A stretch of 63,321 bases of DNA, the filler included, from Folioceros fuciformis (Eukaryota): the NCBI GenBank assembly GCA_049999805.1. It is 7 parts of 7 records of this genome, joined end to end, with 100 filler letters (N's around TTAATTAATTAA, not from the genome) between each part and the next. Parts side by side here need not be neighbours in the genome. Positions count along the whole stretch, not along the records: positions 25,065 to 36,550 come from JBNGIO010004621.1; 6 more parts are not named here. One strand, 5' to 3'. How positions within the stretch are numbered: position 1 is the stretch's first letter; each line of letters opens with the position of its first letter. The position numbers were made by a program, and so were the translations under genes. The notes under the pieces are model-generated. The model made no database searches. It had not been told where the DNA came from and saw only the letters and a list, made by a program, of their open reading frames with translations. Below are positions 16,827 to 46,100 of this stretch, piece after piece.

Positions 16827-16960
16827 CTGGACGAGACAAGAGAGTGCGTAAGCAGAAGAGNNNNNNNNNNNNNNNNNNNNNNNNNNNNNNNNNNNNNNNN
16901 NNNNTTAATTAATTAANNNNNNNNNNNNNNNNNNNNNNNNNNNNNNNNNNNNNNNNNNNN

Positions 16961-17267: not shown

Positions 17268-20200
17268 ACCATGCTCAAGGTGACTGCTTAAGACCGTAAA
17301 TTGTGTTCAGCAGGTTGCACAATTTATTGGCATTCTCTGGACTAATGTTCCCTGGTGGTTGTTGCATATACAGGGTCTCCTGCAGCTCTCCATGCAAAAA
17401 GGCAGTACAAACGTCCATTTGCTGAATACTCTGCGGCCATCGCCAAGAGAATCCAAACAGAGGGAGGCTTTACCACTGGAGAGAACGTGTCACCAAAGGG
17501 TATGCCAGGAATTTGACTGAAACCACGAGCAACTAGACGAGACTTGTATCTGGCGATTGTCCCATCTGTTTTCAACTTTGTTTTGAACCCATTTGCAGCT
17601 AATGGGTTTCTGTCCTGCAGGCAAATCCACAATCTCCTAGGTGTTGTTTTCGATGAGAGAAGCATATTCATCGTCTATGGACGCACGCCAGTGTGAACCA
17701 TCAAAGCCATTAACAGCCTCGTCATAAGTTTGTGGATCCGGACAAACTTCAAGTACTGTGAAGTCTGCAACATGAGCTTGAGAACCTAGTCTAAAATCAA
17801 TTGCCTTATAAGGTGGTTATGTCCAATGTTCACGGGAACGTCTCTCCTGTGTAGGGTATGTAGGCTCGACGACTACGTACGGCTCGTCTACAGCTACTCC
17901 CACTGCTTGGTCAACCGGGAACTCACCATATGACAGTTCAACTAACTCATCAAGATCTTGGAGAGAACCAGTGGATTCTGAGTGTTCATCATTCAGATCG
18001 AAGGCACCCTGAGCAACATGTGGTGCAACTGCAGTCTCTTCACCAGTCTCATCTCCAATCAAGGTGGGTAGATCATTCTTGCCATTAGAATCAGGGTAAT
18101 GCATTGCTGGTTAGCGAACAACTTGTTGTAGGGAGCCTGTGTTATTTTCTTCATCACATATACATGACTCATAAGTCACTGGAACTGTGCACTTTGTCCC
18201 AAACTTCGTGGAAGCTTGCCTTCTAGGAGTAGTAAGTTCATCAAAGGTTACACTTCGTGCCACTATCACTTTATGGGTTGCAGGATCAAACAGCTTGTAA
18301 GCCTTTGAGACTTTTGAATAGCCAAGGAAAAGCAGGGGTCTAGCCCTATCATCTAACTTGCGCCTCTTCTGTTTAGGGACATAAGCATATGCTGTGGAGC
18401 CAAACGCCCGCCAGTGCAACAAGCTCGGCTTCTTCCTCCAGAACACCTCATATAGAGTTTTTCTAGGTACTGCATTATTCAGCACTCTATTAAGTATGTA
18501 GGTAGCAGTTGAGATAGCTTATGCCCAATAGTGTTTGGGCAAACCTGCCCATCCAAGCATACTCTTAGTCATACCCATTAGGGTTTGGTTTTTATGCTCA
18601 GCAACACCGTTTTGTTGTTGAGTATATGGAATGGCTAACTGACGGATGATCCCATGCTTTGAAAAGAGCTCATCATATCGATGTCCAATGAACTCCCCAC
18701 CATTGTCAGTGCAAAAACACTTCACAAAATTGCCAGTTTGTTTTTGTACTATAGGAATCCAGGTTGCTATACACTCAAAAGCATCAATCCTGAGATGAAG
18801 TGGAACCACCCAGGTGTAGCGTGAGTAATCATCAGTTAAAGTGAGGTAATACTATGCTCCACCTAGTGATTTAACCTGCAACTTGCCAGCAATATTTGCA
18901 TGTATAAGTTCCAGCATTGCCTGTTGGTAAGTCTTCTTCTCTTTCCCCCTTCCCTTCACAAACGGCTTGCCCTTAGCTGCAAAAAGAACCTTCTCACCTC
19001 TTACTCTTGAGCCCTGACCTGGCTTGTGTCTGCTGGCCTCCTCTTGCAGGAGAGCCCCAACCATAGTATTCAAGTTCAGAGTATAAGGTTGATTTGCAGC
19101 AGAGGCAACATATGCTGCAGAGAGCCAAATTCTGTCCAGAGATAAACGTATGATAGGAGGAGGGCAAGGCAGTAAACAACTGGGCAACCATTTCAACCTC
19201 AGTGATCTTGGCACCTAGCACAGCCAACTGTGCTTGCAACAACTTCAACTTGGTAATTCCTGGTCCCACAAGGTCTCCTTCCCTTATCCTAAACGAGTGA
19301 AAGTCACTTCGCAAATTCATTAAGGTACAAACATTTTGTACCTTATAGGTATCTCTGAGCTGAGTCCAAAATTCCTGTGCTGTGTCCAGGAACTCAACCT
19401 CAATAATAGTTGCGGCATCCAACCCATACAATAAAATGGCAAAGGCTACTTTGTTGCCTTTGTCCCATTTTGCCTTCTCATCTGCTGTTGGTTGATGTGT
19501 AGCTGTGGATGGGACCAAGTAAGGGTTTACAATGCTCCCATCAACATACTCCCAAACATCCCTTGCATTCAACATTGCTTGCATTCGAGCCCTCCAACTC
19601 TCATAGTTTATAGGTTTGCCATCAAACCGATCCTTCTCCTTAAATTCACCCGAATAAGTACTAGCTTGAGCAGGAGTACCCATGTTGAAAGGAGGTAGGA
19701 CTGTATATGGGAGAGAGGAGAAAGCAAGAAATTGTGACTGCAGGGATTGAAGGAAGGAGGCTTCTGGGGCTAGATCCTCATCTACGTCACTATCTGAGTC
19801 CCCAAACAGCCACTCAAGGTCATAAGACATAAAGAGAAACAAAATGACATTTATTGTAAGTAAACGATGTTTTTAATGTTTTAAGATGTTGTCTTTAGGG
19901 TTAGATACGAAAACCCACTAACTCAATTGAAACGTTGCAGATGAACATGAATCAATGACAGGTGGCAGAGTTCATCAACCGTCACCCTGGGCCAAGTCGC
20001 CGGTTGGAGTCTGGCTGAGTGCCCCTGGCACTGTACCTGCGCCCACTCGCGTGATCCCCCTTTGTCGAAGCTGGGATCCCGAGTTGAGTCGCGCCCCTAC
20101 AAATCTGGTCGCCCACACTGCAGCACCATGAGGAATCCTTGCGTGAAGGCACCAAGGTCGGCAGATAGGTGGCAACAAGAGGTGCGCGAGCATACTCAGA

Positions 20201-21731: not shown

Positions 21732-24700
21732 TGTTGGATATAAAACCCTAACATAACTTATGGCTTAGTCTAACCATAAGCTACTCAGTTAACCCAAAAG
21801 ACACACATACAATTTTTGTATTTAAGGATATTTTTCCTTTTATTTATTATTACAATGTTTTCGCTTCCACAATTAGTAGCATGGTATCAGAGCCTAGCTA
21901 TATATGTTTTCACTCTAGAATCGTGCTAGCATAGATAATTTTAGCTGCTCACATAATGCACAAATTTCCTCCTTGGAAAATGTGCGATTGTGTGACCAGA
22001 AATTTATCTCTGCCTGCACTATATATTTTGTTAGTTTAATCCAAAACTTAATGGGATTGTAAATGAGTCTATTGATTCTGCAGTATGACGCGGAGACGTG
22101 GGCGACGCCCTGATGATGTTCTCTCACAATTTGTGAGTATACATAATAGGAATCGTCCACAACAAGTTGAGCATTGTGCGACTTCACAAGATCAACGTCA
22201 TAGTTGGACAAATCCTCCTCCAGGCTGGATATCTCCTTTTCCAAAGAGAAGATCTCATCAACTCGACTTGGGAGAAAGGGCTCCCTCTCTACTTCCTGAG
22301 CGTGGATCCTAACAAACATTTTCTCTGCATCCTTGCAATACCTGCAGAAGTTATTCAAACAGGCTATTAGATCCTTCGACAAAGTTTGAGAGGATATCCA
22401 CTAATTAGAATGAGTTGGCTGAGCTTAGACTTGAAGCGCGGCGCAATAGAGTTACCAGTTCAGATGAGACTCTTTTCTCGCAAGTCTGCAGAGAACATTT
22501 ATTGCTGTTGCAATAGGGAGAATGACTGACAATGATGCATGATCTGCTTCAGAGTGTACAAAATTCCCTCTCAGCCCTCACCTTGAAATTGGAGCGTGCT
22601 GAAGTGGGACCTGTCTCTGTGAGATCTCCCCAGGTCGCGACCTACTTGCCAAGTCTGGTACCTACACGTGAAGAGCCTGCAATGGCGTCACCTTGTGGGC
22701 GATCAGATATGTAGGGGTGCCACGCGCCTTGACTCGGGATCTCTTCTTCATCCTTGGAGAAGGATCGCCAAGGTGGGTGAAGCACACACAGCGCTAGAGG
22801 TGTTTAGGGAGATCTCAACCACCGCCTTTGTATGGATTGACGGTTGAGAAGTCCTGACACCTATCGCGTGTTCATGTTCACCTGCATCGTTTCATGTTAT
22901 TTTATGATGTTTCATATCTAAACCTAAAACAGTTAACTTAGAAACTAGACATACCTTCTGTAAACGTCGTTTCGCATTAAGTCCATGTCTTTTGGTTTAA
23001 ATTGGTTATTTGAAGATTCAGATAGTGAAATCGACGAGGACTTTTCCACATAGTTCTCTTTCCTTCAATCCTTGCAAGCACAGTTCCCTTCCTTCATCCT
23101 CCCATCATACCTTGTTACTTCGGGAGTTGTCCCTGTACTCAACATGACTGTGTCCACAAATATAGGGTCATACTCTGGTGAGTTCAAGGAAAAAGACTGG
23201 TTTGACGGCAAGCCTGTAAATTATGAAAGCTGGAGGGCTCGAATGAAGGCAAACCTGAATGCTAGAGATGTGTGGGAGTATGTTGATGGCTCAGTGGTCA
23301 ATCCTCATAAGATACCTGCCACAGCAGCAATTCAACCGACAGCAAATGAGATTCTCAAGTGGGACAAAGGAAACAAAGTGGCATTTGTGATATTGTTGTC
23401 AGGACTAGATGCAACGACAGTTACTGAGGTCGAGTTCCTCCAAATAGCAGCTGATATATGGACTCAGCTCAAGGATACTTATCAGATGCAGAATGTTTGC
23501 ACCCTTATGCATGTCAGGAGTGATTTTCACTCTTTCAGGATGCGAGAAGGGGAACCAGTTGGCCCTGGCATCACCAAGCTGAGACTATTGCAAGCACAAC
23601 TTGCATCACTAGGGGTCAAGATTAGCGAGGTTGAGATGGTTGCCCAACAGTTTACTGCGCTTCCCTCATCTTACTAGACCTTCATTTTTGGACAAAATTC
23701 GGCACTTACTGCAGCATATGCTGCTGCTGCTGCTTCTAATTAGGCTTACTCCCTCAACCTGAATACTGTGGTCAGAGCTCTCTTGCAAGAGGAGGCTAGC
23801 AGACGCAGACCTGGTCAGGGAGTTCGCACTCAAAGTGAAAAAGTCCTGTTTGCAGCAAAAGGAAAGTCGTTTGTGAAGGGGAAGGGGAAGGACAAGAAAA
23901 CTCACCAAACAGGGCGTACCTTTGGTGGCTCGACTTCTTCAACTCCCTCCATCAAACGACAAGGCAACTACAATTGGTGTTAAATACCCGGCCATTGGGA
24001 GCGGGATTTTTGCAAGAAAAAGGCTGGTGAACGTAAGAAGGATCCTCGTTCGGAGGCACATGTTGCTGCAAAGGACAAAGGATCTACTCCACACAAGAGC
24101 AGCTCGACAGTGTTGACTATAACATCAGTTTGTTTGTCTTCTTCAGCAGATTCAGCTTTCTGGTTCATAGACTCTGGGGCCACTTCTCATGTGTGCAATA
24201 ACAAGGACCTGTTTGCCACACTTACAACAGAAGTCCCACCACAGTCAGTTTATGTGGGGGATTCTACAGGCATAGAGGTTTGTGGAGTAGGGTCAGTCGT
24301 GATTACCTTAGCCGATGAGTCAGACATCCTTCTAGATAATGTTCTGTACGTGCCCAAGATGTCAAAGAACTTGCTGTCAGTCCGTGCAGCCACCCAGTCT
24401 GGTAAATATGGCTTTACGTTTGAGCAAGGTCATTGTTGTCTCTATGATCTCTCCAGACCTGGTAGGTGCATAGCTAGAGGACAACTAGTTAACGAGTTGT
24501 ACCAGCTACATAATTCTGCTGAACCAGAAGCATGTGTTACCTCCACCATATCTGAAGCAAACTTGTGGCATGCAAGGCTTGGACATGTTAACATAGAGAA
24601 GCTGAATCTGATGGCTTCCTTAGATTGCTTTAGGGAAAAACTTCCCTCCTATTTTAAGCATCTCCCTGTTTGTCAGTCTTGTGTTATGTCGAAGCAGAAG

Positions 24701-24733
24701 GAACTTCCCTTCAAAAATAAACAGGCATAGAGG
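21732..24733 (+). mobile_element. Decayed Ty1/Copia element (copy 2, same family as copy 1): 150-bp LTR, PBS, extra 5' ORF, gag, zinc knuckle, protease, pre-integrase
   Basis: LTR 21732-21881 (TGTTGG...TAGCA) is similar to the copy 1 LTR. PBS TGGTATCAGAGC at 21882-21893. Gag FDGKPVNYESWRARM, protease WFIDSGATSHVC, then LWHARLGH...CQSC. Confidence 0.93.
22085..22740 (+). pseudogene. Extra ORF between PBS and gag of Copia copy 2 (several stops, one late frameshift)
   Basis: MTRRRGRR...RRSH...LRLEARRNRV...LLLLQ*GE*LTMMHDLLQSVQNSLSALTLKLERAE...ATYLPSLVP, then GDQICRGAT in a shifted frame. Homologous to 19982-20659. Confidence 0.7.
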
Positions 24734-24964: not shown

Positions 24965-25064
24965 NNNNNNNNNNNNNNNNNNNNNNNNNNNNNNNNNNNN
25001 NNNNNNNNTTAATTAATTAANNNNNNNNNNNNNNNNNNNNNNNNNNNNNNNNNNNNNNNNNNNN

Positions 25065-26983
25065 CTGGAAGCAGCGTTGCCCGCGCTCTACATCACCGTA
25101 GCTCTTGCAAGCAGTGAGCAGAGCTGTCCACCCCACCACGTCATCCACGCACGATGTGTTTCGCAACACATGTTCGGCCGCATCCAGATGCCCCGACCGC
25201 CCAAGAAGGTCGACCATGCAACTGTGGTGATGATCCGTGGGCACCATCCCGTGCCTTTCCACCATCATGCTGAAATACGACCGGCCATGGCACACCAGGC
25301 CTGCATGACTGCATGCCACCAGGAGGCAGGTGAAAGTGGTCTCGTTGGGTTGGACACCTCGCTGGAGCATTTCTTCGAAACAACGGATGGCCTCCTCACC
25401 ATCACCATGTTCCGCATAGCCGTTGAGGAGAGCATTCCATGTTACCACATCTTTTGAGGGCAGAGTGTCGAACAGCCTGCGAGCCCTCTCCAGCCTGCCG
25501 CATCTAGCGTACATGTTCACCAGGCTATTACCGACAATGGTAACAACTTCCACGCCCCTTTCACGAATTTGAGAATGCAGCTGCTTCCCCTGCTCCAACG
25601 CTCCCACACTGGCACATGCTTGAAGGAGGCACACAAAAGTTACATTGTCAGGAAGCACAGCGATGTTGGCACGCTGCATACTCGCATATAGAGCGAGGGC
25701 ATCCCGTCCCATCCCCTGCTGCGCATATCCTGCGATCATGGCATTCCAGGTCACCACATCTCGATTGAGCATAGCGTCGAACACGGTGCGGGCCTCCAGC
25801 AAGGCTCCGCATTTAGCATACATGTTCACCAGGCTGTTGCCCATCACTGCATCATGTGCTTCAAGGTCCAGCCCCTCTTGCCGGATTTGTGCGTGAAGCT
25901 GCTTCCCGTGGGGCAGGGCCGGAGCTCCCACAGCAGCACAGGCCTGCAGAAGACAAACATAGGTAACACGGTCGGCTGGAGCAACGCCCTCTTCCTCATA
26001 TGCATGCTGCATTTGCACATACAAAGCCAAAGCTTGGCGGCCATGGCCCTGCCCCTGCCGAGCATACCCTGCGATCATGGCAGTCCATGTCACCACATCC
26101 TTCATGTCCAAGCTGACGAACACTTTGCGAGCGTCGTCCACGCTGCCGCACTTTGCATACATATCCACCAGAGCGGCACCAAGGAAACAATCGGGCTTCC
26201 CAGCACAGGCCTGAATGTGGGCATGCACCTGTTTGCCCGACACCAGGTCGCGTGCGCAGGAACACGCCTTGAGAGCTGCCACGAAGATGTGGTTGTCCGG
26301 CTGTACACCTGATCGTTGCATCTGTTGATACCAGGTGATGGCTACCGTGGGCTGCCCGTGTCGGGAATGTGCAGCAATGATGGGAACCACATGTAGACAT
26401 CCGGAGCTGCGACTTGTCTGAATGCCTGCACTGCTTCCTCCAGCTTGCCATGAGATGCATGCATGGCAATGATGTGAGTGGCCAGAAATGCATCACACCC
26501 AAAGCCCTGTGCGACAGCCAAAGCATGAAGGCGCCTGCCCCATTCTAGAAGACTTTTGTGTGTCATGCGCCTCTTGAGGAGATGATACAGGTCCTTGCGG
26601 CTGATCTGACATCCCCGCTGCACAAGCCCATCCAATGCTTCCACAACCTCACCCAACTCTGCTGCTGTTGCAGCCGCTTCGTGATGACCACGTCTAGTAA
26701 ACTGCCGGGCCTGAGGCATTAGCTTGCGTTCGGGCTTGGGCTGCCACCCGCAATCGTAGGTGTTGTACTGCTGCTGCTGCGGCCCAGCCGGGCCTCCACA
26801 TCGGCTACCACCAGCGCAGAACCTTGGTTCCTGTGACCACGCCACCGTGTGCAGACTGAAGTAGGAGAGGGCATTCGGAATGGAGCACAGCAGCTGCATC
26901 GCCATTGTGTTACTTGTTGCAGGAGGCTGGCTCAAATGGCCTTGCTTGACGATGATCACATTTGCATATGCACGGATAACCAT
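25065..26983 (-). pseudogene. PLS-class PPR RNA-editing factor with a frameshift at ~26390; C-terminus lost in the gap
   Basis: Regular P-L-S triplets (DVVTWTAMIAGY, VTFVCLLQACA, GNSLVNMYAKCG), P2-L2-S2 (LLVACSHAGLV, HSCMVDLLGRSG) and E1 start (VVGWTALLTACKSYGDVERG). ORFs 26342-26983 and 25017-26390 join out of frame at DVYMW/IIAAHS; a sequencing error is possible. Confidence 0.88.
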
Positions 26984-27675
26984 TCACATCCAGACGGATA
27001 TGCCTGCTCCTGCCTCCCAGCCCAACTGGAGCTGTCAGGCCTCCTGTTGCTGTTGAAGTCGCTGGACAAATGATCATGAGCCTCCTCGCAGCAAGCTTGC
27101 CCTCCGGGACAGACCGAAAAGAGGTGGCGCAATGGCAGTCAAACCATGAGCGACATATGTGACGAGGGCACCATCACAACCAAGCATCATAGCAATCATC
27201 CACTACCGCTTCTTCAACCAGCTACAGCTTCTTGAGGTGGTACTTTGGAGGGTAGTGTCGAGTGTCTATGAAGCTCACTGCCAGAATGCACTCCGTACCT
27301 AGCGTACTAGGTGCATGCATACTATAGAGTCGCATCTGCACGCCCGATCCTGAACCTGTCTGTGCATTTGATCAGCATGTAGGACAGCATCGAACACCCG
27401 AAGTCTTTTCTGGTCGGTGGAATCATGCGCGCTTTGAGTACAAATGTAGGTGGCGTGGAGGTGTTGCGATCTGTAACACTTTGAAAAGTGAAAGAAAAGT
27501 TGCCAAGAAGGAAAGGATACAAAACAGCGAGGTTGGTACGTCCGTCCCTGCATCCCGTAGACCACCTGGTCTAAGCGGATGTTGAGAAGCAGGTTACGGC
27601 TCCTGCTCCTGCTGCTACCATAGCTACTTGTCCATGGTTTTCCATCTTTCTCCAACAGACAGCGTTTCCTGAACG

Positions 27676-29094
27676 ATGGTCACGGTATGGCAACCGGACC
27701 CGTTGTGGACCCCAACAGACGGGTGTGCGTACTGGGATGCTACTCCCAACAGTGAGGGAGCTCCCGCTCACCTCACTGTTGGGAGTCAAGGTGTGGCAAA
27801 CAAGCAAGCCCACTGGCGCGGCAGTGCAAGGAGCTCACCTCTTCCACTTCCACTTCCCACAGAATGTGCGGGTGGGGACGGCTTCCTCAATGATGCTCGT
27901 CGCCAGGGACAGCAAGAGGAGCACGTGTGGCAACACGTCTTTCCGGACCCTACTATGTGGTGGGACAACAGACGAAATAAGAGGAGCTCCCGTTCGCCTG
28001 ACTTCCGGCGGAAGGGGTCCGGCGAGGTGCTGTGGTTAAACAACAGGTTTAAGCCAGCTTGGGTTGATGAGCAGCTCGTCTCCTTGGATCTGCAGATGGG
28101 TCTCGGTTCCTCTACTTCCAACTTGAGCTCTCCAGATAATCCTGAACCTAGAAGGCGTACAGGAGGCGCTTGTTGTGTATGGACACATGGAGGAGGCAGG
28201 CCTCGTTTTGGCTAATGATGTTACTTTTGCTTGCCTTCTGAAGGCGTGTGGAAGCACTGGTGCCTTGCAGAAGGGCAGGGAGCTTCACTCACAGATTGTC
28301 AAGAGAGAACTGCTGGATAATGTAGTGGTGAGAAACTGTCTGGTGGACATGTATGCAAAATGTGGTGAGCTGGAAGGTGCACGCCAGGTTTTTGGCAGGA
28401 TGGCCACTAAAGATGTTGTTACATGGACAGCCCTGATCGCTGGGTATGGTGCTTGTGATGAAGGTCGTAAGGCGCTAGCTTGTTTTGAGGAGATGTTAGC
28501 TGCCGGTGTTCATCCTGACGATGCTACTTTTACTTGCCTTCTAGTAGCGTGCAGTCATGGGGGTCTGGTCCAGGAGGGTCGCAAGCTCTTTGATTCCATG
28601 GCTGAACAGCATGGTGTCATACCTACTGTTGAGCATGACACCTGCATGATTGATCTTCTTGGGCGTGCTGGCCAATTAGATGAGGCAGAGACGATGGTGT
28701 CATCATGTGAGGGCGAAAGTGAGGTGGTGTGTTTGACATTTTTGTTGAATGCCTGCAAAAGTCACGGACATCTAGAGAGGGCTGTGTGGTGTTTTGAAAG
28801 CATTGTTAGGCTGGACCCCAGAAGTCACCTGCCTACATTCTCATGGCCAATGCCTATGCAGATGCAGGTAGGTGGACCGATGTAGATAGGATTGAAACAC
28901 AGAGAACGGCAGCAGGAGCTAAGAAGAAGCCAACAGTGGCAAGCATTAAGGTGAATAAGGAGGTACACAGATTTCTGGTGGGAGAAAGGAGAAAGGATAT
29001 TGCACTTAAGGTAGAGAGCACGAATGCGCGTGTGAAGCAGGAAGGAGGCGTCGTACCTCACACAAAGTTGGTGTCTAAGTACATTGGGCTTTAA
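27676..29094 (+). pseudogene. PDF-motif + PLS-PPR + E1/E2 + truncated DYW:KP-type domain pseudogene
   Basis: ~27925-28077 VWQHVFPDPTMWWDNRRNKRSSRSPDFRRKGSGEVLWLN...PAWVDEQL. 28151-28820 PPR L-S-P2-L2-S2-E1. After a frameshift: AYILMANAYADAGRW...AGAKKKPTVASIKVNKEVHRFLVGERRKDI...KQEGGVVPHTKLV. No HxE/CxxC catalytic part remains. Confidence 0.85.
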
Positions 29095-29102: not shown

Positions 29103-29419
29103 TGGCCCGGTACCAGACCTAAACTTTCTCAGGTCTGGGACCAAACCTATGCCCACTCTTATAACCAAACCAACTATTTCCTGGTCAATTAACCTAATTA
29201 GCACAAAGAAAAATAGGAAAAATGACCAGAAAATCAAGGAAAATTAGAAAAAATAAGTAGAAAAAGAAAACAAAACCATACCACTATTAACCCTTTTTCA
29301 ACCAAAATAAACTACTACCCCAAACTTTGGAGGTTCACAGTTCTCAAGATATTGTGATACAGAGCTCACAGAGTGCTGAATATCAGGCCTAGTCTAGTAG
29401 GCTATATAATTTAGGCAAC

Positions 29420-31496
29420 CTACTACATGACGATAAGGGATCTAACTCATGACTGCCTTTTCCTCTTCATCTTGTGGGGATTGCTCAGCAGACAACTTCT
29501 GACCCACTGTGCCTGGTGTGCTTACAGGCTTGGCATCTGCTAGGTTGAAGCAGCGAAGTGTCTCATGAACATACTTGGTCTAATGAAGAATCAAGGTACA
29601 ATTTTCCCTATCACGCAGAAGCTGAACACCAAGGACAAATGTAAGCTGACCTATATCTTTCATGTCGTAGCGCTTGTGCAACATGCCCTTAACCTAGTCT
29701 AAAAGCTCTCGATTGTTGAAAGCTAAAAAGGCGTCGTCGACATAAAGAGCTAGGATCACAATGTGGCCTCCTTTGGTGTATATATATACATTGGCGTCTG
29801 CTAGATTCTGAACAAAGCCAATAGATTTGAGGTATTTATCAATACATTTATACCACTCCCTTACGCTCTATTTGAGCTCGTAGAGAGTCTTCTTGAGCTT
29901 GCAGATCCAGTCCGGGTGTTCAGGATCCACAAAACCCTCTGGCTAATCCATATAAATGTCCTCTTCTAACTCTTCATACAGAAATGCAGTTGAGAAGTCC
30001 ATCTATTCGAGATCCCAGTCACGGGCAGCAGCAAGTGCCAGCATCATTCTTATGGATTGCGTCTTCACGATAGGGCTGAATGTCTCGTTGAAGTCGACAC
30101 TTGCAACTTGGGAGAAACCACGTGCAACAAGATGTGACTTGTAACGTGCTATCTTTCCTTGTGCATTTAATTTGTGCTTGAATACCCACTTGCAACTCAC
30201 AGTTTTCCTTCCAACAGGTAAAGGACAAAGCTCCCAGGTTTCATTTTTCATCAAAGAATCGTATTCATCCTGGATTGATGGAACCCAGTGATGCTTATCC
30301 TTCCCTGTGATTGCCTCTCTGTATGTGCGAAGTTCTGCTGGGTGAGAAGTGCTGGATGAGAAGTCCTCATAGAGACGTGCAGAACGTGGTCGTCTAAAGT
30401 CCTCTGGCTCATAAGGTTTATACTGCCAGTTTTCTCTAGAGGGACGGGAACGAGTAGGGTATCTGCGTTCTTCCTCTGCGGCTGGTTGTGAGGGTATTGG
30501 GGCAGGTACTGAAACAACGGGTTCTACACTAGGAACGTCTTCATCATCAGCAGGCTGTGAATCAGGATTGTCCGAATCAGATTCTATAGCTACATCTGCT
30601 GGCTCTAAATCCTCATGATCTACTCCAAAATGTAAAGGAGCGAGGGCAGCAGGTGAGTCCGGTTGTACGTTACTTTGCTGTGATTGCTGTGGACTCTGTT
30701 GCTGAGACGGATGAGAAACGGACTGCTGAGATGATTGTGGCAATTGTGCAAGGCGTTGAGAAATCTGCTGACTCCGCTGTGAAATCTGTTGTGGCTGCTA
30801 TTGGGTCTAATTCTGGGAACCACTCTGCTGCTGTGATTGCTGTGATCCACCCCCTAAAGGGCTAGCAACTGAGACAGGTAGATAGACGGCAGCTGCTGGC
30901 AATTCATACACGGCATCTTGTGGGAAAACCGAAGGGGAATCATCAAAAACAAAGACACCGGGAGCATAACCAGAATTTGGAGGAGCTGCAGACTGAGAGC
31001 TGGTGATCTCCTTGAAGGTAACACTCAAGGAAAATAGAGAGGTGCGTGAAACCTTGTCATACAGCTTATATCCTTTGGTTTCTTCACCATAGCCGACAAA
31101 GATAAGGGGTTGTGCCCTGTCCTCAAGCTTTTTACGTTGTTCCTCATGTATGGAAGCATATGCAGGAGAACCGAAGACACGTAAGTGGTGCAAGCTAGAA
31201 TTTGACGGTTCAGTCAGAGTATTGCACACAATCCATATTTTTGAAATGTGGATAATGTACAAAATTCTGACTTGACCATCTTCCAGCAATTACATGTGCA
31301 ATTACATGCTCTAATACCATGTAAATAATAGCAAGAGTGGCTAGCTAGAGCAGTGAGCGAGAGCAAACACTTGCACAGAAAAAACTTGTCAATTAAAAGT
31401 AAAGTGTAGCTTAAATACAATGAATAAATAACTGTTCATATAAAGCTAACCTAATCCTAACTTAAGTAACCAGCAAATGTGGTTATATATTTAACA
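29420..31496 (-). mobile_element. Internally deleted, decayed Copia: LTR 31496-31320, PBS, integrase C-terminus, Q/S-rich linker, RT
   Basis: TGTTAAATA...TATTTACA followed by PBS TGGTATTAGAGC (31319-31308). About 100 bp later HLRVFGSPAY...RKKLEDRA. RT KNETWEL...CKWVFK...LVARGFSQ...ETFSP and LALYVDD. Confidence 0.85.
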
Positions 31497-34400
31497 AAAC
31501 CTAACTAGGACTATATATGCATGAGTGTGGGTTGCATTACGCTCTGTGAACTTTCCTAAGGTGGGAACAAAACGGAAGCATGAATTAGGAAAAGATTAAG
31601 GAAGTACATAGGTAGGGGGCCCTCTTATAGGGGACCCAGGGCACCCCTTCGTAGGGGTGCAACTATTCACTTGACGAGCTAGGTTAGTCTAACTCACGTG
31701 GCTAGTAGCTAGGGTTACGTAAACCTTACGAAACTTAACACTCCCTCTTGAGGGTGACGTAACCTAGGCTAGGGACTCCATCTGTCGAGAGAGCATCTTC
31801 TGGTCTTCAGCTCTTGGGGAGGTACGGGGTGAAGTCGATCAGGCCCATGCTCTCCATGTGCTGGTAGTGCCGGATCTTAGGCATGCCCTTCGTCAGGATG
31901 TCTGCCAAGTTGTCCTCCGTTGGTACATAGTTGGCATCTACCACCTTGCGCTGGACTACATCCGGATGTAGTGATGTTGGATCTCTATGTGCTTCGTTCT
32001 GGCGTGGAACTTGGAGTTGGAGATCAGGGCCAGAGCCGACATGTTGTCGCAGTAGAGTGGCGTCGGCTGGCCCTGCTTCTAGCCAACGTCGGCTAAGAGG
32101 GCTCGCTCCCACTCAGCTTCCTTGGAGGCATCTGTGAGTGACTTATACTCAGCCTCTGTGGAAGAGAGTGCTATGGAGGTCTGCTTCTTGCAGCTCCAGT
32201 TCACCACAGTAGAGGATAACAGGAAACAGTGGGCGCTCAAGCTCTTCCTTGAATCTGGGTCAGATGCCCAATCTGCATCTGTATAGCCGCTGAGGAGTAG
32301 CTTGCCGGTCCCTCCGTTCTGGTACATCAGTCCATAGGTCAAGGTGCCCTTCAGATAGCGAAATATTCTCTTGACCGCAGCCCAATGCGCCTTGCCAGGG
32401 TTCTCAAGGAACTGAGACATTGTGGAGACGGAGTAGTGGATGTCGGGCCTCGTCCAGCCGCTGGTGAAGAGGAGACTCCCTACGGCATGGCGGTAAGGGA
32501 TCCCGTGCATGTCCTTGGTCTCTTCTTCAGTCTGAGGGCATTGCTCAGCAGTGAGTTTTGTGCCCACAGCGTAGGGGGTGGTAACAGGCCTGGCTTGGTC
32601 CAGCTTGAATTTCCTCAGTATCTCATTGACATACTTGTACTGATGGATGATCAGCTTCTTTTCAGCTCTATTCCTCAAAATCTGAATTCCAAGGCAGAAT
32701 TGAAGCTCGCCAACATCTTTCATCTCAAAACGGGAGCTGAGAAGCTGTTTAACTTCCGCTAGCAAATCCAGGTTGTTAGCGGAAAGGATGAGATCGTCCA
32801 CATACAGAGCGAGGATGACAAAGTGTGCCCCTCGAGTCAGCGTGTATACGTTGCCGTCGGCCGCACTCTAGGTAAAGGAGATGCTGAGCAGGTAGGGGTG
32901 CATAGTGATATACCACACTCGCCCGCTCTGCTTGAGGCCATAGATGCACTTCCTCAGCCTGAGAACCTTGTTGGGAACTCCCTGCTGACGTAGCCTTCTG
33001 GCTGGTCCATGTAGAGCTCCTCGTCCAGGGTACCATAGAGGTAGGCAGTCTTGACGTCCATTTGGTGGAGCTCCAGGTCCAATTCAGCCGCGGGGGCAAG
33101 CAAGATCCGTATGGATTACGCACGTACCACCGGGGAGAAGGTCTCTTGATAGTCCAGGCCTTCGACTTGGGAGAACCCGCGTGCCACTAGCCGGGCCTTG
33201 AAGCGGTCCACCTGTCCTTGGGCGTTGAGCTTAAGCTTAAACGTCCACTTGCAGGAGATGGGCTTCCTTCCAGGGGGAGGGTCAACGAGTTCCCAGGTCT
33301 TGTTCTGAAGCAGACTCTGGTACTCGTCCTCCACTGCTATCCGCCACTGCGCGGACTCAGGTCCTGCAAGGGCTTGGGAAAGAGTGGTCGGTTCCTCTGG
33401 AAGGTCCGTTTGGGATAAGGCCGCAGATAGTGAACTGAAGGATGTCCTGAAGTCGATGGAGTGATAAGGTGGCTCTGTCCACTAGGGTGGTAGTGCTCGA
33501 TGACGAGTGCTGCGCCGAGGACCGGGGTGAGGTGCCGAAACGGCCGGCACAGCCTCAGCATCGGCCGATGCGGGCTCCGCAGGAGGAAGCTCCTCTGGAG
33601 CAGCCGGGGGCAGGTCCTAGTCGGAGTCAGCAGCAGCATCGTTAGCAGGGGGCTGGGCCACAGGGAAGGTACCATCAGGGGCTTCGGGAGGCACGTCGGG
33701 GGTGATCGGCACATCGTCCTCAAGGGCGGTGCCGTTGTCTGGATTCTCCACGTAGCCTTGGTCACCATCCTTGGTGGGGTAGGCACACGCAGTGTCGGGG
33801 TCAGCTACCACAGGACTGTCGGCGGACGCATTTCCCTCGGAAGCTGGCTTGACCGGCTCCAGAAAGGTAACTGTGCGCGCCAGGGTGATGTCGTGCGTCT
33901 CCGGGTCAAAGAGCTTGTAGGCCTTGGAGCTCTCGCTGTAGCCCACAAATGTAAGCTTCTTTGCCCTGTCATCCAGCTTGCGTCGCTTCTTGGCAGGGAT
34001 GAAAGCGAAAGCTGGCGAGCCGAATACCCATAGGTGCTGGATGCTAGGCTTGCACTGCCAGTATACCTCATAGAGGGTGCGGCCAGGAACCGATCTCGTG
34101 ATCACTCGGTTTAGGATATATGTGGCCGCCACGATCGCCTCTGCCCAGAAGCCTTGTGGAAGTCCAGACCATAGCAGCATGCTCCTGGTCATGGATAGGA
34201 GCGTCTCGTTCTTGCGCTCCGCAACTCTGTTCTGTTGTGGAGTGTAAGTTACCGTGAGTTGTCTCTGAATTCCTCGCTCCAGGAGGAAGGCATCAAACTC
34301 TTGGTCGACAAACTCTGTGCCGTTGTCGCTCCGCAGGGTCTTGAGCTGTTGTCCAGTCTGACGTTCAGCCACTGGGAGCCACTCCTTGAAGTATGTGAAA

Positions 34401-36550
34401 GTATCGCTCTTCAGATGTAGGGGGTAAGTCCAAGAATATCTGCTGAAGTCATCTGTGAGAGTGAGGTAGTAGGTGGCGCCGCCAAGGGAGGGGGTCTAAA
34501 TCTTCCCGGATATATCGGCGTGAACTAAGGCTAGCACGGCCTCAGCCCTATACGCCCCCTTCGGGAACGGAGACTCTTTCTGCTTGGCCAGGACACAAGA
34601 TTCACAGACTGACAAGTGCTGGAAGCATTTGGGGAGTGGCTCCTGGTAAAGACCGTGTGAGGACATGGATATGAGCTTGTGCTTGTTTATATGTCCCAAC
34701 CTGGCGTGCCACAGGGCAGCCAGGTCCTCGGGTGTCTGACCAATGACGTAGGCAAGGGGACCATATTTGCTTGGAAGAGTAAGTCTGTACAAACCATCTT
34801 GGGGGATGGCGCCCATTAGGCATAAGTCTGGACTGTCTGATCTGTAGAAGCAACAGGAGTCATGGGAGAAGTTGACTTCCAGTGAGCTATGCTTCAACAG
34901 CTGACTGAGGGAAACGAGGTTCTTGCCCATCTGTGGTACGTAAAGAACGGGTTCTAGGGGTAGGGTAGAACCGTCAGATAGGGGCAACTCGCAAGTCCCT
35001 TGGCCGAGGATGGGTAAGCTGGACTTATTCTGTTCGTCGCCGAGGAGGACCCTCTCTCTGATTGGACGTTGGTCTAGCCGGGAGAAGAGGGTTGCGTCGT
35101 TGCAGATGTGGGCGGTGGCACCGCTGTCCAAGTACCACCCTTGGTCCGACCGGGGCTGGGTGCTGAGGCAGACAGTGAGAATCTTCACGGTCTTGTTGTC
35201 TTCAGTCTTGCCCTTGACGGCCACATTCGCTGTCTGTCGGAGGCCGGGCTTCAGAGGTTCCCCAGCTTTCTTCTTTCGGCATTCCCGCGCCCAATGGCCG
35301 GGAGTACCGCACCAGTTACAATTACCCGTCCGGCGAGGTGGGGAAGAGGTCGAAGCACCCTTGGAGGTGTTGGCTTGTCTCTCATTCGCCTTTCCGGACC
35401 TGGGTCGAGCTGCGAGCGCCTTATCGGCCTTGAGCTTGGACCCGCCAGCTGAGGTAAGGCGGCTCTACTCGTGTTGATAGAGTGCTCCAATAATCTCCTC
35501 CACTGTAAGTGAGGAGGTGGAGCCAGGGGTACCACGTGTTGACATCAGCATCAAACTGGTGACGAAATGCTGATAGGAATGTGGTAGACTCATCAATAGC
35601 TGAGCCGCGGCATCCGTCTCTATCATGGTCGAGCCGAGGCTAGCCAGATGTCCGCGTAGCTGCCGGAATCTTGAGGTGTGGGCAGCCACTGTGTCGGCCT
35701 CCTTCATTTTTAGGGTGTTGAACTCTTGCCTGACGCTGTAAAGGGTCAGGATGTTGTTGACGTTGTAAGTGTTGGCCAGCTGGTCCCAAATGGCAGCAGC
35801 CGTCGTGAGGAACTCCACACTGGGTACCAGGCTGGAGGTGAGTCCGCTGATGAGGAGAGCGATGGCGATCCCGTTGAGATAATCCCAGCGCTCGACATCG
35901 GCGATAGGCTCGGTGGCCGCAGGCTTGGAGAGGCTACCGTCCACCACTTTCCAGATGCCTTTGCCGACCAAGAGGGACTTCATGCGGACCCGCCAGACCG
36001 GGTAGTGTTGCCCGTTGAAGCGGTCTTGCTCCTTTATCTGCTTGGTGAACATGGGGATGGCGGGGGGTGCTGGGGCCGAAGAGCTGCTTGTGCCGGTTGC
36101 CATCGTAGTTGTCGTGTGCAGAGAAAGTGGGTTGAGTTGCTGGATGATTTGGTCCAGAAGAGAGTTGGTGCCCGTGGTCATGAAAGCCGGGCTTCGGAGT
36201 CGAAGCTAATCGCTTCCTGAAAGTTGATATGCAGCGGAGAAAGGTATAGGCACGAGAGTTCGAGGGAACATTCTCGGGTTCGGTGGGTGAGCAGCCGAGT
36301 ATGTGCCGGGGTCTGGATCCGAAAAACGTCGGAAGACGAGGTCCACCAGCTCGTCGGCGGTCTGCTCCAGCTGGCCCGAAAGTTCCTGGGTCTGATGCCC
36401 TAAGGAGGTCGGCGATGGCGTCATCGGTGGCTTCGTCTTCACATAGTACTCAAGGGTAGGCGCCGGCGGAAAACCCTCGGGTGCTGAAGGCAGAGCATAG
36501 GCAGGCTGCGAGGGAGCAAGGCAGGTATTAAAGAAGGGATAATAATGTGG
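31497..36550 (-). mobile_element. Near-complete GC-rich Ty1/Copia element (gag-PR-INT-RT-RH, PPT, 3' LTR starting at 31740); 5' LTR lost in the gap; several stops and frameshifts
   Basis: Gag DRFNGQHYPVWRVRM; CNWC..GHWAREC knuckle; WYLDSGATAHIC; LRSDNGTEF; ARLVARGFSQ; YVDDLI; GYTDADWA, SSTEAEY, NLADILTK. PPT CAAGAGGGAG at 31750-31741, then TGTTAAG. The distal LTR boundary is uncertain. Confidence 0.95.
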
Positions 36551-36692
36551 NNNNNNNNNNNNNNNNNNNNNNNNNNNNNNNNNNNNNNNNNNNNTTAATT
36601 AATTAANNNNNNNNNNNNNNNNNNNNNNNNNNNNNNNNNNNNNNNNNNNNGATATCCCATGTGTGGGCTGAATTTCTTGTTTAATGCTTCAG

Positions 36693-41078: not shown

Positions 41079-43118
41079 ATGGAGCAGCACGGGCCCTCCG
41101 TGAGTAAGGAGGAGAACCAAGCCGCCCAGGCTGAGGAGATGGAGGCCTTACATGCCATCTATGAGGACGACTACAAATTCTACCCCGACGGCCACTTCTG
41201 CGAGGTGGGCAGCGTCGGTGGCTGGGTGTGTTTGGACGGGAATTTGGTCGCTGTCCGATCTCTTGTCACATGCCCTTGCCGTGCAGATTCAAGTCTACCC
41301 CACGGCTGATGCCCGAGCTGTTGCCATCCGTCTCCGGGTCTACTTTGTGGATTCGTATCCTTCGGCCTGTGAGCCTGTGGCCGAGCTCAGGGCACCGTGG
41401 ATCTCCGAGCACACCAAGCACAAGATTCTGGCAGAATTCGGGGAAATCTATCGGCAGGGAGCCAGAGGTGTTGTCATCTTCCAGTGGGTGGACTGGTTGC
41501 AGGTGTGTCCCCGTCCTGGTCGCCAGCAGTGCACCATGGAAAAGGTCGGCGTTTAACTCCCGTGACTGTGTGTGCGTCACCAGGGGCAGGCGTGGGTTTG
41601 GGAGGAAGCAAAGAGCTGGGCGGAGAAAGTGGCAATCACCAACCAACACTTGAAGAAAGGTGCGCAGATTCCGTTCTGCCACTCCTTCGTACAAGAGGGA
41701 AGCCTGTGTGTGGGAGAGAGACGCATTTGTATTCAATAGTTCTCCTCAGCACTGTTCGGCTGCTGCACTGCACGGACAGGAGCATTGCTGATGGCGAGCC
41801 TAGCCAGATGCCACACTGCCTGTCCACAGCTGTTGGCTGTGCTGGTTGTGCTTGGTTGTTGGTGCTTCTAACCGAAGCTCCTATTCCATGCCGGCAGATA
41901 ACAAGCTCAAACCCAAGCACAAACCATCTCTTTCAGAGCAGTCTCACTTGTAGGTTTCAAACAATTCACATTTTGCTCCGCACAGTTGCTTTTGGTTCTG
42001 ATGCCAACGTCAGGAATGTTGAAAGCCCCTGTGCAGTGCAGTCTCTTGGACCAGTACATTGTGCAGCAGCTTACCACTCTTGTGTCTATTTTTTGTCGCC
42101 AGGAGTGAAGATGACAGCTTGCAAGATGGCCCATCCCCAGTCGAGAGCCCGGAGGATCTGGAGCGGAAGAACGTAGAAGAGCTGGACAGGGCCCTCGGCA
42201 TCGTTCATGGACCTCCTTTCACAGAGAAGAAAAGTATCACCTCAAACCTGTCAGTTTGACTCGTGGATAGAGGCAGCATCACAGTCTGTGACCTTTTTCT
42301 TTTCTCCTATTTTACCACTGTCGATGTTCTGATTTCAAATCTTGGTTGGATTGATTCTGAAGCAACGATATGTTGGCAGGTGTGTTTCAGGCACACTTGG
42401 CCTCCGTTCATGGGGTGGATGAGGTGGAAGTGGTGATGGATGCCCTCCTTCGGAACCGAAAAATTGCTGGAGCCACTCATAATATTATGGCCTACAGGAT
42501 TAATGTACCTGACAAAGGCACAGTAAGTCTAAAGCGCTGGATCCTCCGAACACCTGAAGAAGGAGAGGGGAGTGCGTAAGTGAAGCCTAACAATTCTGCC
42601 ACCACCTTTTGCGCGTTGCAGGTGCTGCAAGACTTCGATGATGATGGTGAAAATGCGGCTGGTGGACGGCTAATGCATCTTCTGCAAATTGTTGATGCTT
42701 CTGATGTTGTGGGTATCCTGTGCCAAGGATATGTATGTACTCACACCTGAGCTTGTACTCTAGCCAGCAGGTTTAACTTCTCGTGAGCAATGTCATGCAG
42801 GTGGTGGTTGTGTCACGTTGGTTTGGAGGTGTCCTGCTTGGCCCTGATAGATTCAGATTCATCAACAACGCTGCCCGGTCCATCCTGAGTACCTGCGGAT
42901 ACGTCGCTGGCAACGGGAATGGTGGCCATCACAAGAATCAGCCCAAACCAACTCCTGCTCGAACGACAGTCACCGTCCTGTCTCGTAGAGGTGGGCATCC
43001 TGTCTTATCATAGCAAATGCCAAATTTGGTAGGCGCAGTTGTAACCCGCTCAGGGTGGTCAGTGATGCTCCTTCTCACGTCACGAACTCATTTTGCTTTT
43101 ACAGGCAGAAAGAAGTGA
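41079..43118 (+). CDS. IMPACT/YIH1-family protein (RWD domain + UPF0029 domain), multi-exon
   Basis: RWD: QAEEMEALHAIYEDD...SYPS...VVIFQWVDWL. IMPACT domain: TEKKSVFQAHLA...KIAGATHNIMAYRI...QDFDDDGENAAGGRLMHLLQIVD...VVVVSRWFGGVLLGPDRFRFINNAAR. Stop at 43013 or, if a last small exon is used, 43118. Confidence 0.92.
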
Positions 43119-46100
43119 GGAGCTGTCAGACGAGATTCCCAGCCGTTTTTCCCCTAGGACTTCTTTGGAGGTTCTCCTCAGTTTGCTCCTGAACATGATT
43201 ATCACAAGGCTTAGATACTTAGCGAAGTGAGGGGCAATGGCCCATGTTTTGTGTCACGAGCAGTTTTGAATGTTGGGAGAATTTCAGGATCGCGAGTGAT
43301 GCACCGTTGTCCATATCTCATCAGAGAACACACTCCAACCCGAACACATCCTCGACATCGTCGTCGTGGTTAGTGCAGTAGGTTCTGGAATGTCGTGGTT
43401 AGTGCACTAGGTTCTGGAATCCGGGCTACAGATGAAGTACTTCAACTCTCAAACTGAAGTTAAGCCCGGACTGTTTGAAGAATTAGGTCTCGCCTGACTC
43501 CATACCTACTACGTGTTTCACGGAGGAGGTGAGCCTGAACGTGTCCACATACGGTATCTATAGAAACTGTTTTACTCACCCGCTTCGCACAAGTTATAGA
43601 TTTCTTTGGATTCCAATTTCCGCGTTTCTTTCACGGGACTTTGAAAGAGGCTAGCTTTTTCGAACGCACGAACGCTTGGAAAAAAAAAAAGGAACCCGCC
43701 CCCTGCACCTCCGNNNNNNNNNNNNNNNNNNNNNNNNNNNNNNNNNNNNNNNNNNNNTTAATTAATTAANNNNNNNNNNNNNNNNNNNNNNNNNNNNNNN
43801 NNNNNNNNNNNNNGTCCCCCTACCTTCTCATGTCCCCCTTGACTGACCTCTCTTGCTCCTCTCTGCAGCAGCATGTCAGTTAGAGCAGACGCCAGACGCC
43901 CGGCGCCCGGCGCGGACGGAATTGCGAACTTCCTTTCCTTTCCTTTCCTCTCCTCTCTCGACCTGTGCCTGTGCCTCATTAGTCTGACCTTGTGATGAGT
44001 GCCGGTACCCCCTTGAGCTGCGGAGCAAGGCAAACAAGACATAAAAAAGAGACAGGGAAAGCGGAAAGCAATCAGTGTACAGCATGCTCTCTCCCTCCTT
44101 ACTCCCATTCTCAGCCATCTTTGTACACCAAAAAGCTTAGGTCAGTGCAGCACATAACAGTCCATTCTGAGAGCCAGAAGATGAAGCAGCAAAGCAGCAC
44201 AAGCAGAAGCGGAATCAGGAAGAGCGGCAGCGGCAGCGGCAGCGCTTGAGAACGTTACAGTACTCCCCGACTCAGCGTAACGTAACGGCAGGGTGAAGAG
44301 CGGGAACGGGGTTACGGGACGGTTGGGAAGGCGCCACGTCCCGTTACGCCGCTGCCTCTGCCTCTGCCTGTGCCCGGGCCCCTGCTGCTACGTCTGCCCG
44401 GCGTCTGTCATAGCCGCGTGTCCTTAACAATCCTGTCATGCTTGAATGATGATCATCCGCCCGGCTCCGGCTGGGCCGCTGGGCCCCCACTTACGGGGGC
44501 CTCCGTGGGCCCCCACTTAACCTAAAGGAATCCCGGTTGCGCTCATGAGTTCGCAGCCACAGTGGCCCGAGGCAGCAGCAGGAGCAGGAGCGGGAGCGGA
44601 GGCAGATGCAGATGCGGGGCAGGCTTGTCGGAGCTGCAGGGACAGCACCGTGGCCACCTCCGATATCGAACTAGTCCCTTTTCACACGTCCGTGCCAGCG
44701 CAGACGCGCTTACGCCCCGATATTACGTAGAGATCTAGTCTCTTGGAGTCCAAGCCTGCCTGCCTGCCTGCCGAGGCCGCTGGAAGATTCCAGGCGTCTC
44801 CCGCCTTCCTTGCCCCTCGCTAACCCTCGCTGCCCATTAGTCAAATACTTTGTGCCCAACCAGAGCATTGCGTACTGTGTGTAGCTGGTGGCTGGCCATA
44901 CTCTCCAGTCAGACCCGGAGCCGGAGCCGGAGCCTCAGCCCGAGTCCACTCGGGCTCGGCTCGCCTTCGGAACAGTCCAAGTCCAATCCAAGTCCAGACC
45001 AGCCCAGCCAGGTTCGAACTGGACCCACCAGTCAGATTGTCCCGACAAGGGTTCACAGAGCAGGGCCTTCTTCCCCGCCACTGCCACTGTCGAGCGTTAT
45101 CCACGCCCTTTGCACTTGCCGCTTTTGTCACTCAATAATGCAACCCAGTCCCCGCTGCCTGGGTTGGATTTAGAATGGCGTTACCGGGTCGACGATCGTC
45201 TTCCTCCCGCCTCCGTCCATGATCCGAACGACCGCCGGCTTTGCCATGCCGGGGCTCCTGTTCCAGCTCAACTATGGCACAAGTTAGGGCAACGAACGAC
45301 GGGCCGGGCCGGGCCACGCCAACCCAACCCGGCCTCTCTTCCTGCCCGCTGCCCGCTGCCCGGCCCCGCCCTTCCTCTCCAGTAGCCTATCCCCGCACGG
45401 GACGGGACGGGACAGGACGGGACGGGATGGGAGCTGGCCTGCCAACCTTCCTACTTCAATGCCTGCTCCAGGTTGGTCCCAGGCGCACGCCTGCTGCCAT
45501 CCCCGACCTCCACCCTCAATTCTGGTCCAATCTCTCAACGCCGCCTCCACCGCGCCTGTGACGTTTGCGCCCCTCTTGCTGCTGCTGCTTGCTGCTCAAG
45601 AGCGTCTAGAGCTCACACACCTTCCTCTGCTTCCCGCGTCCTCCTCTCCGCCCGCGCGCCCTGCACCCTCCATCTTGCATGCGGATCTTCTGCTGTCGTA
45701 TCTCAGCTTTCCGATTTGGACCTGCTGCGCAAGTTTGGCCGCCTCTGCCTCCTTCGCTCATCGCCATCAGCGCCTTCTGGGCCGCTGCTCTTGGCGAGCT
45801 CTCCAGTCGCTGTGGTGGAAACGGGGAGGAGAGATAGCCCACACCACGCCAGGAGACGAGGCTGTGCTTGCAAACGCCTCCCACCACCTCCCGCGCTTCT
45901 TCTTCTTCTTGTGTCACCGCCCGTGTGTGTGCTTTCCGATTAAGACAATCTTGAGCCCAGCCCCGCATTCCTGCCATACCCCCCCGGGCCCTTGCCTGCT
46001 TGCCAAGCTCCCTCTCGTCGTCACCCCACCACCTGCTGCTGCACCTCTTCACTTCGTGTCTTGCCCGCACTGTCGCTGGCCCATTGCTTCCACCTGCGAT

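Follow-up and report, generated by a model that had tools for sequence, protein, structure and literature searches.

We have analyzed a stretch of DNA of 63,321 nucleotides from Folioceros fuciformis (the window; all coordinates count along its full length) and focus here on a locus at 27676-29094, on the plus strand and within JBNGIO010004621.1, in which a copy of the PDF motif of OSB proteins precedes the repeats of a PPR protein. PPR-DYW proteins are site-specific editors of plant organelle RNA, and the reading that we favor, with a probability of roughly 75%, is that what is left here is a dead member of a real, widespread family of PLS-class PPR editing factors whose N-termini bear at least one OSB-type PDF motif. 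Intact relatives are ordered as leader, PDF (one to three copies), short linker, PLS array, E1/E2 and DYW. In the window copy the PDF motif and linker (27913-28162) lead, through an out-of-frame junction at 28162/28163, into the last approximately six PPR-like motifs of such an array, followed by E1, E2 and ∼50 residues of a KP-type DYW domain, with a frameshift of one nucleotide at 28816-28819 and a cut at 29074, next to sequence of the copia type.

Layout of the Locus

In frame 1 an open stretch spans 27673-28215 (ATG at 27676), and its translation carries HVWQHVFPDPTMWWDNRRNKRSSRSPDFRRKGSGEVLWLNNRFKPAWVDEQL at 27913-28086, a stretch of 58 residues that includes 5 Trp, has a net charge of +2 and follows the pattern W..F.DP..WWDNR..K.....PDF..K..GE.LWL.....P.WV. 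This is the OSB-type PDF motif, which we have characterized through phmmer searches, a PDF profile, trees and an AF2 model. The upstream part of the open reading frame (ORF), 27676-27912, is in frame with the motif and has no Pfam domain; paralogue contigs already overlap it, at 27675-27964. Behind the motif comes a linker (28087-28162), also in frame 1, that ends at a breakpoint (28162-28163), and contigs that match the linker diverge after 28163. An earlier, sequence-only reading of this DNA had placed the motif about 75 base pairs upstream of PPR repeats, on the same strand and out of frame with them, and both statements are borne out: 76 base pairs separate the end of the motif (28086) from the start of PPR homology (28163) on the plus strand, as for all parts of the locus, and translation puts the two in frames 1 and 2, respectively.

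Frame 2 supplies the PPR tract (28127-28885), recognized in a Pfam scan by PF01535 (9.3e-31) and PF13041 (6.6e-28). The remnant of the PLS-class array proper, 28163-28818, comprises about six PPR-like motifs, as read from the translation, and runs into E1. At a run of four C (28816-28819), one base longer in paralogues, the frame changes from 2 to 1, and the ORF that follows in frame 1 (28810-29094) contains the E motif, made up of the end of E1 and of E2 (28822-28947; PF20431, 3.2e-10, residues 5-46 of the ORF), and then KKKPTVASIKVNKEVHRFLVGERRKD, with a stop at 29092-29094. The start of a KP-type DYW domain, ∼50 residues long, is found at 28921-29073, with KKKPTVASIKV in place of the PG box and with neither xHP nor HxE..CxxC; it ends at a truncation point, behind which the window has an unrelated tail with the stop (29074-29094) and the paralogues read on into deaminase coding sequence. 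The Pfam PPR and E matches, together with an alignment to the C-terminal array of relatives, give the P2-L2-S2-E1-E2 succession of PLS-class editing factors. In all, the locus has the N-terminal PDF motif, the short linker and the PLS array on one strand, spread over more than one reading frame.

Identity of the PDF Motif

In order to establish what the 58-residue stretch is, we searched it with phmmer against 1.84 billion representative proteins and obtained 590 matches at E≤1e-3, of which 128 reach ≤1e-10 and 17 reach ≤1e-30. Several copies of the motif occur in many of the 590. The window motif keeps all consensus positions in alignment A1, in which the columns W10, D22, R24, K27, P33, D34, L44, W45, P52 and W54 are invariant. 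When the window is translated in six frames and scanned with a PDF profile of 58 positions, built from 413 PDF domains of the phmmer matches, a single site is found (E 4e-25; the runner-up has 0.91). The best 150 of the 590 matches, 130 at E≤1e-5 and 20 at E≤1e-3, were scanned with Pfam. An SSB domain upstream of the motif, the layout of OSB proteins, is present in 32 of the 130 and in 2 of the 20, and most of the remaining scanned matches have no Pfam domain at all. Among the names of the matches are 'OSB1, mitochondrial-like protein' (Drosera) and 'protein OSB3, chloroplastic/mitochondrial-like' (Lupinus). Given the 590 matches, the kept invariant columns and the SSB-linked and OSB-named proteins among the matches, the window motif is the OSB PDF motif and goes well beyond a chance match, in agreement with what had been proposed from the sequence alone.

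PDF motifs of ∼50 residues are described, in the available text of two reviews, in one to three copies behind the OB-like domain of OSB proteins (PMC6963530, PMC4166229). AtOSB1-4 share the motif with the window, including all conserved positions, with similarity at E 1e-10 to 1e-71. They differ in layout: the OSB proteins have an SSB-like OB fold with one to three or more C-terminal PDFs behind it, and the window has an N-terminal PDF motif followed by a PPR array. No SSB domain (PF00436) was found in window ORFs of at least 100 residues or in plus-strand ORFs of at least 33 residues within 26980-28039, as the sequence-only reading had likewise reported, and because this N-terminal domain was not found we do not consider the locus to be an OSB gene.

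Pfam contains no PDF model, which would explain why domain surveys miss the motif. Word-index searches with the PDF stretch and with the E2-KP stretch both came back blank, which is weak evidence. Two of the PDF proteins have layouts of other kinds: P0043 from Coptis chinensis (1526 residues) has PDF motifs in three stretches ahead of a kinesin motor domain and may be a gene-model fusion, and P0104 (162 residues) is apparently a stand-alone PDF protein with a leader resembling a transit peptide.

Intact PDF-PPR Proteins in Other Plants

Eight of the 150 best PDF matches are PPR proteins with an N-terminal PDF in a single ORF. These are XP_024517303.1 of Selaginella moellendorffii (P0101, 910 residues), two proteins of Ceratopteris richardii (P0113, 791 residues, and P0149, 977 residues), two of Adiantum capillus-veneris (P0126, 801 residues, and P0062, 512 residues, the latter with two PDFs ahead of the PPR part), a Pteridium transcript (P0096, 406 residues), a protein of 1371 residues with three PDFs (P0007) and a fragment of 401 residues (P0145). 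A second line of evidence starts from the other end of the locus. The 120 best homologues of the window PPR part were chosen by PPR similarity, independently of the PDF motif, and a scan with the PDF profile finds N-terminal PDFs in 27 of them: 16 from Diphasiastrum complanatum, 3 from Sphagnum, 2 from Calypogeia fissa, 2 from Adiantum and 4 others. None was found in the seed-plant proteins among these 120 (Cryptomeria, Ginkgo, Centaurea, Phalaenopsis). The PDF plus PPR layout is thus seen in 35 predicted relatives with both parts in one reading frame. It had been stated beforehand that the fusion would fall if no intact protein carried the two parts in one frame; such proteins turn up in both sets, and 8 of the 27 homologues just described have a DYW deaminase as well.

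In these 8 the deaminase core is of the DYW:PG type, with a PG-type box (mostly KKxPGxSWIEV) and HSE...CxxCH. Six complete DYW:PG deaminases among them end in DYW or DSW, the latter in P0168 and P0209. The intact PDF-PPR fusions seen have either a canonical DYW:PG domain or no DYW domain.

The window copy follows the same plan as these proteins. In a tblastn comparison residues 5-86 of P0101 match 27916-28161 and residues 87-301 match 28163-28762, with the frame switch falling at 28161/28163, and in order, strand and spacing the window is colinear with intact P0101, P0113 and P0007. The succession of PDF, linker and PLS array is likewise shared with Diphasiastrum complanatum O6H91_15G000800 (P0182), Selaginella XP_024517303.1, Calypogeia fissa P0224 and Sphagnum jensenii P0209, and the window PPR part is 44-49% identical to the Diphasiastrum PDF-PPR members. 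What sets these predicted proteins apart is that they are intact ORFs whose deaminase, where present, is canonical (HSE, ending in DYW or DSW), whereas the window copy is broken. At their source they are annotated only as hypothetical or PPR proteins. To judge from these sequences the PDF-PPR architecture is real and widespread, extending over mosses, liverworts, lycophytes and ferns. We found no paper that joins the PDF motif or OSB with PPR or DYW; supplements lay outside the search and an earlier mention is possible, and within the literature searched the architecture is apparently undescribed.

Relationships among PDF Domains

In a tree of 296 PDF domains the window motif falls in a supported set of 12 rows, 10 of which are PPR-linked (SH-like support 97), and in a maximum-likelihood tree of 105 rows it again falls in a set of 12, with 11 labeled as PPR including the window's own row (support 96). 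On the 105-row tree the PPR label requires 4 changes compared with 32.6 when labels are shuffled, and none of 500 shuffles gives a number as low. That all 41 PPR-linked rows form one clade is not rejected on this tree (p-AU 0.43); the PPR-linked PDFs are compatible with one origin, of which 58 alignment columns are no proof. The rows nearest to the window PDF are fern and other PPR-linked PDFs, not the Diphasiastrum PG-type ones. Composition follows the same division, with PPR-linked PDFs more basic than those of OSB proteins, from which they cluster apart on the trees: the mean net charge is +2.1 for PPR-linked and +0.4 for SSB-linked PDFs, and the PPR-linked ones average 5 Trp and 8.9 aromatic residues per 58 residues.

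The trees bear directly on whether an OSB fragment and a PPR fragment have simply come to lie side by side by chance. The two parts are indeed out of frame, and a transposon nest can bring unrelated fragments together. We nevertheless give this explanation a probability close to nil, since no SSB domain lies upstream of the motif in the Pfam scan, the window PDF clusters with PPR-linked and not with SSB-linked PDFs, the order, strand and spacing are colinear with intact proteins such as P0101, and the same architecture recurs in 35 predicted proteins.

Probable Decay of the Window Copy

Paralogue contigs from four public runs (X1, X2, X4 and X5) were compared with the window. At 28162/28163 the contigs of all four runs diverge from the window exactly at the breakpoint, and they do so from both sides. 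Contigs that match to the right of 28163 have a complete PPR helix before that point (consensus AGYAQQGLGQ), and those that match the PDF-linker side have a different sequence after it. Over its full length the PPR remnant of 218 residues aligns with residues 539-756 of P0251 (926 residues) and 706-921 of P0190 (1090 residues), and since it corresponds to only the last part of the arrays of these full-length relatives some 450-650 array residues are missing. The internal deletion suspected from the sequence alone fits both the two-sided divergence of the contigs and a remnant that matches only the end of an array. One argument that had been offered for it, that the array starts in the middle of a repeat, is not in itself evidence of a deletion, as the intact Selaginella protein P0101 also starts with half a motif. 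We read the breakpoint as a deletion or recombination junction.

The second lesion is the C run at 28816-28819, where the contigs have an extra C behind 28815; a fifth C restores the frame, and this frameshift may be a homopolymer error of the assembly. The third is the truncation. Behind 29074 the paralogues of all four runs share the consensus LKPLCEKEKE, the normal continuation toward the active site, whereas the window continues with unrelated, highly repeated sequence and then with minus-strand retrotransposon ORFs of the copia type. A tblastn search of the window with KP-type C-termini did not find the remaining, catalytic part of the DYW domain. Nor is there a deaminase signature HxE(x)nCxxC within a single ORF: the ORF stops at 29092, homology ends at 29073, and the coding sequence is divided between two frames. 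A weak match of the last ∼50 residues of four KP-type DYW proteins was noted far away at 921-1085 on the plus strand (E 0.08-0.76, 24-26% identity), where Pfam finds nothing; it may be due to chance.

It might be argued that the gene is alive, that its frameshifts are errors of assembly and that it would encode a short PDF-PPR-E protein. The second frameshift does lie in a C homopolymer, and the one frameshift of a neighboring PPR gene, described below, is contradicted by contigs of two other runs. The frame change at 28163, in contrast, coincides with a two-sided homology breakpoint and with no homopolymer, only some six PPR-like motifs are left, the deaminase is cut at 29074 with repeat sequence after it, and a reading of the sequence by eye found no canonical in-phase GT..AG intron that would join frames 1 and 2. 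Survival of the gene is therefore very improbable in our estimation. With its breakpoint, its frameshift and its truncation ahead of the deaminase center the window copy cannot encode an editor; it looks dead, a probable pseudogene in a transposon nest.

The KP-Type C-Terminal End

The C-terminal part of the locus is related to a particular class of DYW proteins. In tblastn comparisons 28816-29079 matches the C-terminal regions of seven KP-type proteins with 41-52% identity (E 1e-14 to 5e-25), whose active sites read HAE in six cases and HVE in one, and the DYW:PG C-terminus of P0182 gives no match there at E≤10. The deaminase start had been assigned to the KP type from the sequence alone, and these comparisons agree. 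In the segment KKKPTVASIKV...GERRKD the PG box is replaced and xHP is missing, the two features by which DYW:KP domains are characterized in the available text of PMC9478123. With the PLS-class PPR-E-DYW:KP editing factors, candidate U-to-C editors of hornworts, lycophytes and ferns, the window copy shares these two features and the P2-L2-S2-E1-E2 succession; it differs from them in its N-terminal PDF and in lacking most of the array, the catalytic center and the C-terminal triplet.

Whether the PDF motif and a KP-type deaminase ever belonged to one working protein is a separate question from the reality of the PDF-PPR family. The locus could be a chimera, in which a PDF-bearing 5' end, for example that of a PG-type or DYW-less PPR gene, was joined by illegitimate recombination to a KP-type 3' end, so that the two would never have worked together. 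We regard this as unlikely. In its favor are the following points: all 8 PDF-PPR proteins with a deaminase core are DYW:PG, none of the 8 KP-type proteins compared has a PDF, 28163 is a homology breakpoint on both sides, and the region is heavily rearranged and full of retrotransposons. A candidate vestigial PDF in the KP-type protein P0300 ('EFLVDPSQW' near the N-terminus) was rejected, with a profile E of 0.31 among 8 sequences. What speaks against a chimera is, first, P0145, in which an intact PDF leads into the start of a PPR array within one ORF and whose 7 best matches among 300 compared proteins are all of the KP type (50.5-39.7% identity). The window PDF, moreover, groups with fern and other PPR-linked PDFs and not with the Diphasiastrum PG-type ones, and a deletion inside a single gene would be a simpler event.

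The arrangement in the window itself speaks for a link between PDF and KP, and so do two further observations. The three best matches of the window PPR remnant are KP-type proteins. Very many contigs, under three organism labels, match the PDF part at ≥88% identity, a number well above what a few OSB genes could account for, which we have counted in favor of the link; depth is not copy number, and the PDF and PPR bins, which in each of the four runs exceed the single-copy flank by orders of magnitude, are taken to show only that related contigs are very numerous. On balance we lean, with modest confidence and from sequence comparisons, toward the existence of working PDF-PPR-DYW:KP proteins. 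The sequence-only reading had gone further in describing the locus as a decayed copy of exactly this architecture: the broken copy and the reality of the PDF-PPR fusion elsewhere have stood, while the pairing of a PDF with a KP-type deaminase has not been recovered in the KP-type proteins compared.

Putative Role of the PDF Module

When a PPR tract binds RNA, its N-terminal repeats lie toward the 5' side of the target, and a PDF module at the N-terminus would thus sit 5' of the PPR footprint. The most likely mechanism, in our view, is that it would add affinity for single-stranded nucleic acid independent of sequence, the possible ligands being nascent or unfolded RNA upstream of the footprint or the single-stranded DNA (ssDNA) of the nucleoid. 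Such added affinity would make the editor locally more concentrated on its substrate and might place editors at the site of transcription. We infer this role of an auxiliary grip from the reported ssDNA binding of the OSB1 motif, from the aromatic and basic make-up of the module and from its place at that end of the PPR tract which faces 5'; in AtOSB1 the PDF motif is described as sufficient for ssDNA binding in the available text of PMC6963530 and PMC4166229. An AF2 model of the window motif is a compact unit, predicted with confidence, that has a helix at 2-13, short strands and a helix at 54-66 (pLDDT 89.5, pTM 0.72), and composition and model are compatible with predicted binding of ssDNA. 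Comparison with solved structures was uninformative. A sequence search of the PDB with the PDF gave a chlorophyll-binding protein as best match at E 0.17, the A1 profile retrieved PPR structures only, and with the model the best Foldseek match in the PDB was at E 6.5 and the best Z score from VIA-align over 48,161 chains was 4.3. The predicted fold appears to have no meaningful match among solved structures, which is no proof of a new fold.

Several points weigh against the overall reading and its functional extension. Many of the PDF-PPR fusion proteins are automatic gene models, and P0166 of Diphasiastrum complanatum (1362 residues), with PDFs at 142-196 and 680-734, looks like two tandem PDF-PPR genes that were merged. 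An intact ORF that combines a PDF with a KP-type deaminase did not turn up. Among the contigs listed none bridges 28163, 28816 or 29074 at single-copy depth, which is no proof that such contigs do not exist. It is in the window's assembly alone that the breakpoint at 28163 and the cut at 29074 are observed, and since in the neighboring gene this assembly is one base off from X1 and X2 small indels may be errors. Nucleic-acid binding by the PDF in PDF-PPR proteins is argued by analogy, and as OSB1 and OSB2 favor ssDNA over double-stranded DNA or RNA, according to the available part of PMC4166229, binding of RNA by the PDF is not a given.

A second nucleic-acid-binding module N-terminal to the PPR tract has a counterpart in maize PPR4, an RRM-PPR protein (PMC9459714, available text). 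PPR4 is a P-class splicing factor that uses an RRM, and the PDF-PPR proteins are PLS-class editing factors with a PDF motif. The accessory domains listed in the available part of the same 2022 review of PPR architecture include RRM, SMR, NYN and LAGLIDADG, and PDF is not listed there (PMC9459714).

A broader proposal, which we put forward only tentatively and consider rather doubtful, is that PDF-PLS-PPR-DYW is an old accessory-domain layout, common to mosses, liverworts, lycophytes and ferns and probably reaching the KP-type U-to-C editors, with a PDF module, known as an ssDNA binder, that would keep the editor at the ssDNA of the nucleoid or at the nascent transcript and in this way link editing with transcription. 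Seed plants depend on MORF/RIP helper proteins, which to our knowledge early land plants do not have, and the PDF module could be a helper function built into the editor itself.

Genomic Surroundings

The locus lies among transposon sequences. Immediately downstream, 29125-29400 is very deep in DNA run X2, and 29400-36449 on the minus strand is occupied by retrotransposon sequences of the copia type, two elements or fragments with RVT_2, rve, SH3_retrovirus, Pol_BBD, gag_pre-integrs and Retrotran_gag_2 matches; an ungapped search found no pair of long terminal repeats around them. Head to head with the locus, on the minus strand at 25065-26983, is a neighboring PLS-class PPR gene, identified by tblastn and translation, with ∼445 codons open up to the run of N at 25021-25064, into which it runs. 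Contigs of X1 and X2, under the same organism label, have an extra A and contradict the only frameshift of this gene, which is near 26383. The PDF profile has no match in this gene, and no E2 or DYW part was found beyond the N run. Both PPR genes are placed within a transposon nest.

ORFs of the copia type (gag, integrase, RVT_2) occupy at least four stretches of the window: 17345-19872 (minus), 23054-24727 (plus), 30006-36205 (minus) and 53404-54114 (plus). Several host genes are also visible. Matches to RelA_SpoT (2.5e-7) and HD_4 (9.5e-9) at 2559-3065 and 4429-4755, on the minus strand, are probably exons of an RSH (RelA/SpoT homologue) gene; Myb DNA-binding domain matches fall on two ORFs at 47676-50163 (plus), one of them an open frame of 661 residues; an RWD-domain ORF is found at 41104-41553 (plus, 4.1e-9), and a 60S acidic ribosomal protein has an ORF at 61545-61955 (minus, 2.4e-11). 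Six pairs of N runs, each of 44 bases with 12 bases between, are located at 8725-8824, 16861-16960, 24965-25064, 36551-36650, 43714-43813 and 55989-56088, and three further N runs of 100 bases lie at 5321-6722; the N runs look like masked stretches and not like assembly gaps.

Significance

The window's own copy, being a pseudogene, is of no value as an editor or as a tool. KP-type proteins are, in the available text of PMC9478123, the only known candidates for U-to-C editing and are in development as programmable tools. If functional, the PDF would be a small module of 58 residues that could be tried for its effect on the activity of designer editors. An N-terminal PDF on many editors of seedless plants would, if functional, add a new part to the editosome, and would suggest a physical link of editing with the organelle nucleoid or with nascent RNA.

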